DNA of 55,544 nt from Candidatus Yanofskybacteria bacterium (GTDB taxonomy: Bacteria > Patescibacteriota > Minisyncoccia > 2-02-FULL-40-12 > GWA2-44-9), in the NCBI GenBank assembly GCA_023245235.1, contig JAHFKT010000003.1:1-55544 (forward strand), written 5' to 3'. Below, piece by piece: positions 38,026-42,607 of this stretch (position 1 is the first letter of the stretch; each line of letters starts with the position of its first letter). Both the position numbers and the translations under genes were made by a program. Under the pieces are notes generated by a model. That model had not been told where the DNA came from and ran no database searches. It was given only the letters and a program-made list of their open reading frames with translations.

Positions 38026-38748
38026 ATGGCTTATCCCCACACAATCTTCGGATGGTTTCTGGAGCTGTTATTCCCCTACCGGTGCCTGTCGTGCAGGCGG
38101 TACCTGGACCGGGAGTATATCTGTCGGCCCTGTTTTAACCGGTTGCCGATAAAGGGGCAGGGTGAATGCGTCGGCTGCAGCCGTCCATCGCCCGATGGCA
38201 TGACATGCATCTTATGCAAAGACGGGTATCAGCTTGACCAGCTTATGGTCGTGAGCGATTTTAACGATCCGGCCGTCGCAATGCTCATCAGGAGAATGAA
38301 ATACGGGTTCATCCGGGACCTTGTGGAACCGCTCCATAGGCTCTCCCGAAAATATCTGTTGTACCGTGCAAAGAAAGGCCGCTCGTTCATTCAGGATAAT
38401 CCCCTGCTCGTTCCGGTACCGCTCCACATAGTAAGGGAGCAATGGCGGGGGTTCAATCAGGCGGCTCTTTTGGGAGAAAGCATTGCCGGCACGTATCAAC
38501 TTGAACTTGTCCACGCACTCGAATGTACTCGGCACAAAACCCATCAGGCCGAAATTCTTGAACGTAACCGGCGTATCGAGAATGTCCGCGGGTTGTATCA
38601 ATGTATCGACCCGAATTTGATAAGAGGAAGAAAAGTCATGCTCATTGACGATGTATGCACCACCGGAGCCACCCTCAATGAATGTGCGGCAGTCCTGAAA
38701 GCCTCGGGAGCATGCTCCGTCAGCGCACTGGTGATCGCCAGAGGTTAG
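38026..38748 (+). CDS. comFC: ComF-family phosphoribosyltransferase-like competence protein
   Basis: 240 aa. N-terminal Zn-finger Cys pairs (CLSCRR...CRPC...CVGC) and PRT motif VMLIDDVCTTGATL. Confidence 0.85.
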   Translation: MAYPHTIFGWFLELLFPYRCLSCRRYLDREYICRPCFNRLPIKGQGECVGCSRPSPDGMTCILCKDGYQLDQLMVVSDFNDPAVAMLIRRMKYGFIRDLVEPLHRLSRKYLLYRAKKGRSFIQDNPLLVPVPLHIVREQWRGFNQAALLGESIAGTYQLELVHALECTRHKTHQAEILERNRRIENVRGLYQCIDPNLIRGRKVMLIDDVCTTGATLNECAAVLKASGACSVSALVIARG

Positions 38749-39860: not shown

Positions 39861-39868
39861 GGTATGGG

Positions 39869-39957
39869 CGGAGGCGGGAGGATTCGAACCTCCGGTCCGG
39901 TTTTACCCGAACACCTCTTTAGCAAAGAGGTACATTAGACCACTCTGACACGCCTCC
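39869..39957 (-). tRNA. tRNA-Ser (anticodon GCT)
   Basis: Acceptor GGAGGCG/CGCCTCC, discriminator G, anticodon loop TTGCTAA, long variable arm, T-arm GGAGG-TTCGAAT-CCTCC. No encoded CCA. Confidence 0.9.
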
Positions 39958-40053
39958 AAATTCAAGCAAATTTTATCATAAAAATCGGCCTCTGGCAATC
40001 GCGAAAGTTCGAGAGAATCCTCCCGTAGTCACCTTTATGCTATACTTTCCGAT

Positions 40054-40455
40054 ATGTTGCTTAATTGGTTCAAAAAAAATTCTGTTCTCGCCGCTCGGAT
40101 CGCCCTCTTTATTATTTACTTCTGGTTCGGCTTTTTGAAGGTGATCGGCTTCAGTCCGGCCGGTCCGCTTGTAGGGGCATTATTTGACCGCACTATTTCA
40201 TTTGTCCCGTTTCAGATGTTTTACATCAGTTTTGCCATATTTGAGTGCCTCATCGGTATTCTGTTCTTATTTCCTAAATTAACCAGAGTTGCCCTCGTAT
40301 TATTTTTCCTTCATATGATCACCGCATTCCTGCCCCTGATTTGTTTACCGGACATGATCTGGCAAACAATACTCATACCAACGCTCGAGGGCCAATACAT
40401 TATCAAGAATATTGCCCTCATCGCACTTGCAATGGAAATCGGGGGGTCGATATAA
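40054..40455 (+). CDS. Small four-TM membrane protein (unknown function)
   Basis: 133 aa and strongly hydrophobic (IALFIIYFWFGFLKVIGF...). Confidence 0.55.
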   Translation: MLLNWFKKNSVLAARIALFIIYFWFGFLKVIGFSPAGPLVGALFDRTISFVPFQMFYISFAIFECLIGILFLFPKLTRVALVLFFLHMITAFLPLICLPDMIWQTILIPTLEGQYIIKNIALIALAMEIGGSI

Positions 40456-40463
40456 TCTCGTCC

Positions 40464-40553
40464 GGAGAGATGGCTGAGTGGTTGAAAGCAGCGGTTTACT
40501 AAACCGCCAAGCTCGCAAGAGCTTCGTGGGTTCGAATCCCACTCTCTCCGCCA
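40464..40553 (+). tRNA. Class II Ser-type tRNA with anticodon ACT (unusual A34); CCA encoded
   Basis: Acceptor GGAGAGA/TCTCTCC, discriminator G plus CCA. Anticodon stem GCGGT/ACCGC with loop TTACTAA. Variable arm AGCTC-GCAA-GAGCT. T-arm GTGGG-TTCGAAT-CCCAC. Confidence 0.8.
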
Positions 40554-40555
40554 AT

Positions 40556-40846
40556 ATGAACTCACTGCTGAAAAAACCCAGCGCCTGGTTTCCAATAGCG
40601 GTTTCACTTGCCATTCTGGCGGTAATGCTCATCGGCATTGCAATGTCCGGTGTCCCCGCCCATCAGGCCGATGAAGGAACGGGCGCACATATCTTTCAGA
40701 TCTGGTTGGTTTTGGAAATACTGATGATGGCATTCTTCGCGATCAGGTGGGTGCCGCAGGCACCAAAGCAGGCGCTTACGGTTCTGACGATTCAAATTGT
40801 TGCCGTGCTTGCGGCATGCGCCCCCGTTTTCTTTCTCAAGCTTTAG
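40556..40846 (+). CDS. Small membrane protein (unknown function)
   Basis: The ATG at 40556 is 2 nt after the tRNA CCA, and the longer ORF would run through the tRNA. 96 aa with three hydrophobic helices. Confidence 0.5.
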   Translation: MNSLLKKPSAWFPIAVSLAILAVMLIGIAMSGVPAHQADEGTGAHIFQIWLVLEILMMAFFAIRWVPQAPKQALTVLTIQIVAVLAACAPVFFLKL

Positions 40847-40936: not shown

Positions 40937-42466
40937 ATGGCCAACAATAGTCCACAACAAGGCGTAGGAATCCGACCCCCGATCGTTGTCGTTCTCGGGC
41001 ATGTTGACCATGGCAAGACATCGCTGCTGGATGTTATCCGGAAGTCGAATGTTGCGGGCGGGGAATCGGGCGGCATCACCCAGCACATCGGCGCCTATCA
41101 GGTGGTCAGTAATGGCAAGATGATCACCTTTCTTGATACGCCCGGCCACGAAGCATTTTCGGCTATCCGTTCCCGGGGCGCCAAGGTAGCCGATGTGGCC
41201 ATCCTCGTTGTTGCGGCCGATGAAAGCGTCAAGCCCCAGACCGCCGAGGCGATCAAGATAATTAAAGAAGCCGGCATCCCATTTGTCGTCGCGCTCAACA
41301 AGATCGATAAACCCGGAGCAAATGTCCAGAAGGTAAAGCAGGACCTCGCCGGCAATGACGTGCTGGTCGAGGATTGGGGCGGTACGGTGCCGGTTATTGA
41401 AGTATCCGCCAAAGAAAAACGCAATATTCCCGAACTTCTGGACATGGTCCTTCTTGTAGCAGAGTTGGAAGACCTTAAAGAAGACCTCTCGTTGCCCGCC
41501 GAAGGTATCATCATTGAATCGAATCTGGATAAACAACGGGGTTACGTGGCGACAGCGTTGGTCCAGAAGGGCATTCTGTCCGTCGGTGACTGGATTATCG
41601 CCGGTACGACCGTCGGAAAGGTAAAGTCCATGGAGGATTTCACCGGCACGGCGCTGACAGCGGCCCGTCCTTCTCAGCCGGTTCTCATAACGGGATGGAC
41701 GAACGGACCGGAGATCGGCCGGGAATTCAGGACCGCCCACTCAAAAGATGAGGCCCAGAACATTGCTAACGAGAACGTAGACCTTACTCCCCTCTTCTCG
41801 TTCTTGAGGACGAGCCAGACGGAGCTCGATCCCAATAAAAAATATCTCAAGCTTATCATCAAGACTGATGTGTCGAGCTCGCTTGAAGCGATTGACGTTG
41901 CCCTGAAGCAGATCAAGTCGGACGAGGTTGGTTATACGGTCATCAGTTATGACATCGGAGCCGTTTCCGAAGCCGATGTGAAGACGGCTATTGCCGGTGG
42001 CGGACATGTTATCGGGTTCCGCGTTCCGGTGGAGACATCGGCCCGAAAGCTGGCCGAGAAAGAACACGTCGGCCTGGCGACATTTGACGTCATTTACGAA
42101 CTGATCGAATACATCAGAAAAGAAATGGGCAGCCTGTTGTCGCTGGAGGTCCGGAACATTCCTCTCGGCAAGATCAAGGTATTGGCCACATTCAAGAAAG
42201 ACGCGAGGGCTCAGGTTGTAGGCGGGCGCGTCACTTCGGGCAAGGTCGTTCGCGGTGCTTTTTGTGATGTCACCCGCGACGGCAAGTCCGTCATGATCGC
42301 AAAGATCGGACAGGTTCAGCAGAGTAAAGAAGATGTGCCTGAAGTGAATGAGGGATTTGAAACCGGTGTCCGGGTGGATATACTTGATCCCAAGACCGCC
42401 GTAGATATAAAAGTCGGTGATATACTGGAGATATATCAGGAAGAACGGATTTCAAGGAGCTTGTAA
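40937..42466 (+). CDS. infB: Translation initiation factor IF-2 (short form starting at the G domain)
   Basis: 509 aa. [12 protein letters not shown] (G1), DTPGH (G3), NKID (G4). Only about 13 residues precede the G domain. Confidence 0.95.
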
Positions 42467-42532: not shown

Positions 42533-42607
42533 GGCCAGGTAGCCAAGTGGTAAGGCGGAGGTCTGCAAAACCTCTATTCAGGGGTTCGATTCCCCTCCTG
42601 GCCTCCA
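42533..42607 (+). tRNA. tRNA-Cys (anticodon GCA), CCA encoded
   Basis: Acceptor GGCCAGG/CCTGGCC, discriminator U73, anticodon loop CTGCAAA, T-arm AGGGG-TTCGATT-CCCCT. Confidence 0.9.

Follow-up and report, generated by a model that had tools for sequence, protein, structure and literature searches.

A conserved serine tRNA with an ACU anticodon in a family of Patescibacteriota, a possible auxiliary reader of AGU

The tRNA-Ser(ACU) gene and its surroundings

The window analyzed here is a stretch of 55,544 nucleotides from a Candidatus Yanofskybacteria genome (contig JAHFKT010000003.1 of assembly GCA_023245235.1), in which positions 40464-40553 of the forward strand, with the full sequence GGAGAGATGGCTGAGTGGTTGAAAGCAGCGGTTTACTAAACCGCCAAGCTCGCAAGAGCTTCGTGGGTTCGAATCCCACTCTCTCCGCCA, are called as tRNA-Ser(act) by ARAGORN (Table 1). 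The Rfam model RF00005 concurs with this call and scores the locus at 60.7 bits (E = 9.7e-11), where the gathering score is 29. As judged from the ARAGORN drawing and the sequence, the acceptor stem is formed by seven Watson-Crick pairs and is followed by G73, the D arm has a 3-bp stem with G18-G19 in its loop, the anticodon stem (GCGGU/ACCGC) closes a loop of 7 nt, the variable arm comprises 6 bp with a GCAA closing loop, and the T arm reads GUGGG-UUCGAAU-CCCAC. The anticodon loop is U32-U33-A34-C35-U36-A37-A38, where A34, C35 and U36 correspond to positions 40498, 40499 and 40500. The long variable arm, G73, the G1-C72 and G2-C71 pairs and C11-G24 are all of the serine type, while the D loop (GG) and the T loop (UUCGAAU) have the canonical elongator form. 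The cloverleaf, the ACU anticodon and the class II serine type that had been proposed in the first-pass annotation hold in all their elements. That annotation was also correct in recognizing a true tRNA of the Ser type, in considering A34 unusual for bacteria in a split box such as AGN, and in taking as the key question whether this A34 becomes deaminated.

Table 1. Features of the window around the tRNA-Ser(ACU) gene.
Feature	Position	Strand	Evidence
comF-like phosphoribosyltransferase gene, upstream synteny anchor	38026..38748	+	tblastn synteny, carriers and non-carriers
Canonical tRNA-Ser(GCU), standard AGY reader	39865..39958 (ARAGORN) / 39869-39957 (Rfam)	-	ARAGORN, Rfam
YkgB/DoxX-like (DUF417-type) small membrane protein gene	40054..40455	+	ORF, weak Pfam DoxX match, homologues
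Promoter-like TTGCAA-18-TATAAT	40427..40456	+	Consensus scan, 10/12 matches; pattern match alone
tRNA-Ser(ACU), class II, CCA encoded (40551-40553)	40464..40553	+	ARAGORN, Rfam RF00005, covariation
Anticodon loop UUACUAA; A34-C35-U36 at 40498-40500	40496..40502	+	Sequence
96-aa hypothetical membrane protein gene	40556..40846	+	ORF, 73 homologues of ~96 aa
infB (IF-2), downstream synteny anchor	40937..42466	+	tblastn and genome search

The tRNA-Ser(GCU) gene lies 0.5 kb upstream of tRNA-Ser(ACU) and on the opposite strand, and the latter is separated by only 8 nt from the upstream ORF (which ends at 40455) and by 2 nt from the downstream ORF (which starts at 40556). Both flanking ORFs are real conserved genes: the YkgB/DoxX-like protein, for which the Pfam DoxX match is weak, has 1278 homologues, some of them named YkgB/YphA or carrying PF04224, and the 96-aa protein has 73 homologues of the same length, which are found in other gene contexts elsewhere. 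The embedding of the tRNA between two membrane-protein genes, to which the earlier annotation had drawn attention, thus stands as regards the narrow gaps and the reality of both ORFs, but the arrangement is peculiar to this genome. A conserved unit made up of the YkgB-like gene, the tRNA and the 96-aa gene was considered and rejected, as both protein genes sit elsewhere in relatives.

The -10 box of the promoter-like sequence, a consensus match, ends 7 nt before base 1 of tRNA-Ser(ACU), and similar promoter-like sites, likewise consensus matches, are found at the GCU gene and at infB. The consensus scan revealed no terminator-like site between tRNA-Ser(ACU) and the 96-aa ORF and, with the ATG of this ORF positioned 2 nt past the CCA, an mRNA released by tRNA processing would be essentially leaderless. 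No integrase-sized ORF is present in the ORF list of the 38.5-42.7 kb region. The 826-kb genome also contains two tRNA-Cys(GCA) genes, located at 42533-42607 of the window and at C14:8699-8772.

Conservation within the family

The family was sampled as 62 species genomes, which were examined by BLAST and pattern searches. The strict pattern TTACTAA...GGTTCGAATCC identified 14 carriers among the 62 and left aside G047 (which has C32), G076, G051 and G046; once the pattern had been relaxed and the orthologous site inspected, carriers amounted to 18 of the 62 genomes, distributed over 9 of 23 genera. The ACU anticodon is consequently present in 17 family genomes besides the one analyzed here. The anticodon loop is invariant among the family orthologues, save for C32 in G047, and A34-C35-U36 never changes among the 12 distinct family sequences. 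Across these 12 sequences compensatory changes were detected in 13 of 26 stem pairs, including three of the six base pairs of the variable stem, and 99.4% of the cells are paired. None of 500 shuffles reached the observed covariation value, and slid controls were 33-54% paired.

The genomic position of the gene is equally well preserved. The usual order in family carriers, as established by tblastn, is comF, Ser(GCU), Ser(ACU), infB across genera, with the two serine tRNA genes in tandem, and the present genome has extra small genes inside the comF-infB interval. Non-carriers exhibit a clean comF, Ser(GCU), infB arrangement, and no remnants of a lost ACU gene were found in their comF-infB spacers. 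On a tree of 12 concatenated tuf/ribosomal-protein segments carriage is clustered (0 of 500 label shuffles were as low), and nine of the twelve genomes in the clade of this genome are carriers; the same tree requires at least 9-10 gains or losses of Ser(ACU) among 59 family genomes. The Ser(ACU) gene is, in conclusion, real, structurally constrained and conserved; it is kept by selection where present, and yet is dispensable.

Of the family copies, that of G046 (G046:C144:276-320) stands well apart in its variable arm and is located on a very small contig. It may be separate in origin from the syntenic copy of the family, possibly representing a phage or a contaminant.

Distribution beyond the family and a separate ACU lineage

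At the level of the order approximately 23 of 105 genomes, in three of four families, carry Ser(ACU). In the phylum, approximately 21 of 401 evenly sampled genomes contain a tRNA-like match when counted by inspection, which gives a lower bound of ~5%, given that the pattern employed needs a particular T loop and that about one third of its raw matches are due to chance, with control columns being similarly populated. A scan of 185,579 species genomes, from which 120 loci were listed, confirmed Ser(ACU) in at least 118 loci of other species genomes (118 of 120 among the matches listed), representing 109 distinct sequences. Among the matches listed, 65 of the 118 loci also contain Ser(GCU) in the 8 kb examined. 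The titles of the listed matches refer mostly to Patescibacteria groups, together with some Planctomycetota, Verrucomicrobiota and 'Gammaproteobacteria/Pseudomonadales'. Two MAGs bearing the last of these labels (G081 and G082) were checked and found to be 1.0-1.5 Mb in size and without TadA, for which reason the label is doubtful, and many of the Ser(ACU) MAGs labelled 'uncultured Gammaproteobacteria/Pseudomonadales' (e.g., L052, L056, L063 and L133) are probably mislabelled.

Ser(ACU) is also encoded by viruses, with at least 119 viral loci in IMG/VR (119 of 120 among the matches listed), mostly within tRNA clusters that hold a median of seven tRNAs per locus among the matches listed. Its companions in these phage clusters are Thr-UGU, Asn-GUU, Gln-UUG, Arg-UCU and Lys-UUU, with readers of A- or U-ending codons dominating, and Ser(GCU) occurs in just two of the 120 viral loci among the matches listed. 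The association of phage Ser(ACU) with readers of A/U-ending codons, combined with the near absence of Ser(GCU), fits a role as supplier of AGU decoding. Other supposedly missing A34 anticodons are encountered in viral loci as well, i.e., tRNA-Gly(ACC) in at least four and tRNA-Ser(AGA) in at least one; tRNA-Arg(ACG) is present in at least ten (L176-L295).

The relationships of these tRNAs were assessed by a nearest-neighbour test, with the anticodon loop masked, on the 118 cellular and 119 viral ACU tRNAs among the matches listed. The nearest neighbour of an ACU tRNA was found to be another ACU tRNA for 114 of the 118 cellular and for all 119 viral sequences among the matches listed, it being noted that U31/A39 and three pairs of the T stem were preset by the pattern used for sampling, which inflated ACU-ACU similarity by a few percent. 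The mean identity of an ACU tRNA to its co-resident GCU tRNA is 0.59 among the matches listed, and 0.53 outside the loop for the pair in this genome, the ACU member of which shares 85-88% identity with ACU tRNAs from other MAGs. The consensus of the ACU anticodon arm over the 118 cellular sequences listed is YUACUAA on G27-C28-N-G30-U31/A39-C40-N-G42-C43, and the G27-C28-N-G30-U31 stem, which is also found in viral copies, is unlike that of the neighbouring GCU genes. No viral and cellular ACU sequences are identical among the matches listed. The ACU-ACU nearest neighbours, the low ACU/GCU identity and the possession of a stem of their own show that these genes are not serial recent G34-to-A mutants, and instead define a distinct isoacceptor lineage. 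The tRNA of the window has the loop and stem consensus of this lineage, has other ACU tRNAs as its nearest relatives and adjoins a Ser(GCU) gene.

The decoding set of the genome and the state of A34

The genome is 826 kb in length, is distributed over 42 contigs, has a G+C content of 52.5% and is estimated to be 95% complete; ARAGORN identified 48 tRNAs. Its RpoB is most similar to proteins labelled Paceibacterota, Yanofskybacteria and Zambryskibacteria, which places the bacterium in the CPR/Patescibacteria. The set of serine tRNAs is complete and normal (UGA, CGA, GGA and GCU), with ACU constituting a fifth serine species. The arginine anticodons are GCG, UCG, CCG, UCU and CCU, with no ACG detected by ARAGORN in the whole genome. 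The occurrence of tRNA-Arg(GCG) in place of ACG and of a tRNA-Ile(UAU), the two at C4:15942-16014 and C35:19138-19211, represents a typical CPR set-up without wobble inosine. CPR bacteria have previously been described as being without tRNA-Arg(ACG) (PMC8629427), which matches the absence of TadA and the use of Arg(GCG) in the present genome. A seryl-tRNA synthetase is encoded at C2:103106-104320 (TIGR00414, 433.9 bits, above cut-off), as is TsaD (403 bits), which serves the t6A37 modification adjoining U36.

The first-pass annotation had left two branches open for A34, namely that it is unmodified and favours AGU, or that it is deaminated to inosine and allows AGA to be read as well. In a profile search for TadA, for which the cut-off is 150, the best match in this genome scored 36.8-39.5 bits, and no match in any of the 62 family genomes exceeded the threshold. 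The sole deaminase found in the genome is ComEB-like, with 146 bits for TIGR02571 (ComEB), and the deaminase search of this genome and of the 62 family genomes yielded no candidate A34-modifying enzyme. The absence of TadA and the reading of arginine codons through GCG rather than ACG favour the first branch, i.e., unmodified A34. This argument does not extend across phyla: TadA scores 158-177 bits, above cut-off, in Ser(ACU)-bearing MAGs of Planctomycetota and Verrucomicrobiales, and the rule 'no TadA, hence A34 safe' is consequently not general. Ser(ACU) and a TadA above cut-off occur together in L048/G080, L152/G079 and L153/G078 (labelled Verrucomicrobiales, Kuenenia and Singulisphaera), the TadA match of G079 containing one in-frame TGA.

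Assignment of AGA and AGG

The meaning of the AGN codons was evaluated in a codon alignment in which all proteins of the genome were compared by tblastn with ~1 Mb of foreign loci. AGA codons of this genome align with foreign CGN codons in 20% of cases, with AGR in 10%, with AAR in 18%, with TCN in 3% and with AGY in 2%, while AGU codons align with TCN in 15%, with AGY in 10% and with CGN in 1%. The profile of AGG resembles that of AGA, and both are like the profile of the genome's own CGN codons, with alignment to serine at ~5%. Furthermore, both AGA codons of rpoB are situated at arginine columns, the UCU and CCU tRNAs share an Arg-type body with A20 and A73, and AGA and AGG together make up 21% of the arginine codons genome-wide.

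A reassignment of AGA to serine was rejected on the grounds of this alignment, the arginine columns of rpoB and the Arg-type UCU and CCU tRNAs. With respect to conservation at serine and arginine positions, AGA and AGG behave as arginine and AGU as serine, and the branch of the earlier annotation in which inosine would also permit reading of AGA runs counter to both the alignment and the Arg-type bodies of the UCU and CCU tRNAs. These comparisons indicate that AGA and AGG specify arginine and that the code is standard; they exclude bulk reassignment or strong ambiguity of AGA/AGG, and would be compatible with rare misreading.

Codon usage and carriage of the gene

AGU accounts for 1601 of the 4778 AGY codons of the genome (33.5%) and for 19 of 62 (31%) in its tuf and ribosomal-protein cluster; this genome does not favour AGU. 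For a comparison by carriage, the same ~14-kb tuf/ribosomal-protein cluster was taken from each of 59 family genomes. Measured against the remaining two-fold codons that end in U, AGU has GC3-adjusted odds of 0.80 among carriers as opposed to 0.53 among non-carriers, which signifies that AGU is under-used in non-carriers and less so in carriers, with a naive Mann-Whitney p of 0.003-0.04. When relatedness is respected, seven of nine sister contrasts are positive (Wilcoxon p = 0.30), and a binary independent-pairs test for the AGU-carriage link returned nothing. The analysis of AGU, AGC and AGA usage therefore provides no AGU preference in the genome itself, but a weak trend towards AGU among carriers.

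A second relationship concerns the arginine codons of the split box. The AGR share of arginine codons is 16% in carriers versus 46% in non-carriers (naive p = 0.008), and carriers make up 15 of 32 low-AGR genomes versus 3 of 27 high-AGR genomes. In sister contrasts the direction is negative in five of nine (p = 1.0), and G021 is a Ser(ACU) carrier with 82% AGR. Avoidance of AGR by carriers was consequently rejected as a clade effect. The family displays two arginine-codon regimes at similar GC3, with AGA+AGG at 0-21% or at 44-84%, that follow its clades; this comparison was based on the tuf/ribosomal-protein clusters L296-L354, with C9:7396-20998 representing the present genome. In the latter (str/S10) cluster, runs of N (assembly gaps) at C9:~9640 and C9:~14670 split fusA and rplB into two ORFs each.

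It is conceivable, if doubtful, that a plain-A34 tRNA acts as a dedicated AGU adaptor, with AGU and AGC decoded separately from each other, and that its patchy retention is set by the risk of misreading AGA and AGG. Such a risk would explain the concentration of carriers among low-AGR genomes, but the AGR link behind this proposal vanishes in sister contrasts. If it were true, the family would offer a natural experiment on the exclusion of ANN anticodons from split codon boxes throughout life.

Probable role of tRNA-Ser(ACU)

The explanation that we favour, with a probability of roughly 0.55, is that tRNA-Ser(ACU) is a functional, auxiliary fifth serine isoacceptor with a plain A34 that reads AGU alone and leaves the code unchanged. 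Since serine identity does not depend on the anticodon, the seryl-tRNA synthetase of the genome would be expected to charge this tRNA with serine. On the ribosome A34 would stay a plain adenosine and pair with AGU through a Watson-Crick A:U pair, tRNA-Ser(GCU) would go on reading AGC as well as AGU by G:U wobble, and AGA and AGG would stay arginine by virtue of the Arg-type UCU and CCU tRNAs. From the genomic evidence we infer that the gene is expressed, that its product is charged with serine, that A34 is unmodified and that decoding is restricted to AGU. Independent experimental backing is available from E. coli, where an orthogonal tRNA whose ACU anticodon was unmodified gave 9.4% at AGU and 0.36% at AGG, with AGC and AGA below detection (PMC11066159). 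What speaks against our explanation is the lack of an AGU preference in this genome, an AGU trend that loses significance in sister contrasts, the dispensability of the gene, and the co-occurrence of Ser(ACU) with TadA in MAGs of other phyla.

Among the competing explanations, the one that survives best, although we consider it unlikely, is that A34 is modified by a route other than TadA, or that AGC is read too, which would render the tRNA a redundant second AGY reader. This would agree with the lack of an AGU preference in the present genome and with the repeated loss of the gene in the family without an obvious shift in codon use, and it has a precedent in the Mycoplasma Thr-AGU and Gly-ACC tRNAs, which, in the account cited in PMC11066159, read C-ending and even all four codons in vitro by means of A34. 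It is difficult to reconcile with the strong in vivo discrimination of the ACU anticodon against AGC (PMC11066159), with the fact that no candidate A34-modifying enzyme was found, and with the strict conservation of A34 in the presence of a G34 paralogue, since two tRNAs with identical reading would give no reason to keep it.

A slightly poorer prospect is attached to the gene being a nearly neutral passenger, either as a phage-derived or mobile tRNA gene that settled next to Ser(GCU) or through a non-decoding role, such as the donation of seryl groups or the signalling of processing at the downstream ORF. Its occurrence in at least 119 viral loci, its patchiness (a minimum of 9-10 gains or losses among family genomes), the fact that the sequences nearest to it, at 85-88% identity, come from MAGs whose labels name other classes, and an ORF that starts 2 nt past the CCA with no terminator in between would all be expected of such a passenger. 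They are opposed by the strong covariation and invariant anticodon within the family, by a chromosomal site between comF and infB that is kept across genera, by the lack of any viral ACU sequence identical to a cellular one among the matches listed, by the absence of an integrase-sized ORF from the ORF list of 38.5-42.7 kb, and by D and T loops that are canonical for an elongator tRNA. The neighbouring ORFs, moreover, vary between genomes, so that a leader role for a downstream gene cannot explain the conservation.

Deamination of A34 to inosine, by which AGU, AGC and AGA would be read and AGA would be ambiguous or serine as in invertebrate mitochondria, is very improbable. The A34 is genomically encoded, I34 would indeed read U, C and A, and the genome does encode a ComEB-type deaminase, which shares its superfamily with TadA, but none of the 62 family genomes encodes TadA, the loop contains UACU and not the UACG of a TadA substrate, AGA and AGG align with arginine rather than serine and amount to 21% of arginine codons genome-wide, and Arg-type UCU and CCU tRNAs are at hand to read them. 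Finally, although a single base separates the ACU and GCU loops, we dismiss the possibilities that the gene is a pseudogene, that it stems from faulty assembly or sequencing, or that it arose recently from the local GCU gene by a G34-to-A mutation. It is 53% identical to the genome's own GCU tRNA outside the loop, its fold is full and shows covariation, and its anticodon recurs in hundreds of records beyond the 18 genomes of the family; with 17 other family genomes and those further records sharing it, a read-level error is likewise excluded.

Significance and comparison with known systems

The usual reason given for the lack of ANN anticodons in split boxes is that A34 is either deaminated or too loose, which is harmful where a box is shared by two amino acids. 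According to a 2021 review, all split-box ANN anticodons, Ser-ACU among them, are absent throughout life and 'prohibited', phages included (PMC8007984). The printed accounts of tRNA-Ser(ACU) that the literature search recovered are two passing mentions: it features incidentally among the tRNA arrays of Acidithiobacillus (PMC4758250) and as a table entry for chlorovirus ATCV-1 (PMC4810235). The gene described here is a real and functional-looking member of an under-described tRNA lineage, and it is not unique to this genome.

A conserved and constrained Ser(ACU), in genomes without an A34 deaminase and with a standard code, makes plain-A34 decoding, and the avoidance of it, testable in nature. 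For annotation, this means that neither pseudogene status nor recoding should be read into the presence of a Ser(ACU) gene. The lineage also has a bearing on phage tRNA biology and on the engineering of sense-codon reassignment where AGU-specific decoding is wanted. For the present genome the code is standard, and tRNA-Ser(ACU) is an optional extra to it.

Several known systems invite comparison. In metazoan mitochondrial codes AGA and AGG are read as serine, which is an outcome that would be conceivable for an I34-containing or promiscuous ACU tRNA, whereas the codons of the present genome align as arginine. The bacterial I34 tRNAs, i.e., tRNA-Arg(ACG) and the tRNA-Leu(AAG) of Lactobacillales, resemble tRNA-Ser(ACU) in having a genome-encoded A34, and they acquire I34 through TadA and serve four-codon boxes; the present tRNA, in contrast, occurs in a genome without TadA, has the loop UACU and belongs to a box in which AGA is not serine.

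Another parallel is tRNA-Thr(AGU) of Mycoplasma capricolum, the A34 of which is unmodified and believed to be plain A (Andachi 1987, as cited in PMC11066159). On the basis of that citation, the two share an encoded A34, a reduced genome and the lack of wobble deamination for the tRNA concerned, but the threonine tRNA serves a four-codon box in which promiscuity is harmless, whereas Ser(ACU) operates in a split Ser/Arg box and has a G34 isoacceptor retained 0.5 kb away. The copies of Acidithiobacillus, ATCV-1 and the IMG/VR phages have the same anticodon and amino-acid type, and the viral ones also share the anticodon arm; the Acidithiobacillus and viral genes reside in mobile arrays or viral genomes, whereas the gene described here is chromosomal, syntenic and under purifying selection in a CPR family.

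The standard AGY reader, tRNA-Ser(GCU) of the E. coli serV type, is likewise of class II with G73, has SerRS-type identity and belongs to the same codon box. Its loop is UUGCUAA as compared with UUACUAA here, position 34 being the sole difference, and the two genes usually adjoin. They differ, apart from G34 versus A34, in their bodies, which are 53-59% identical outside the loop, and in the G27-C28-N-G30-U31 stem that is particular to the ACU tRNA, which is auxiliary to its GCU counterpart and often absent.
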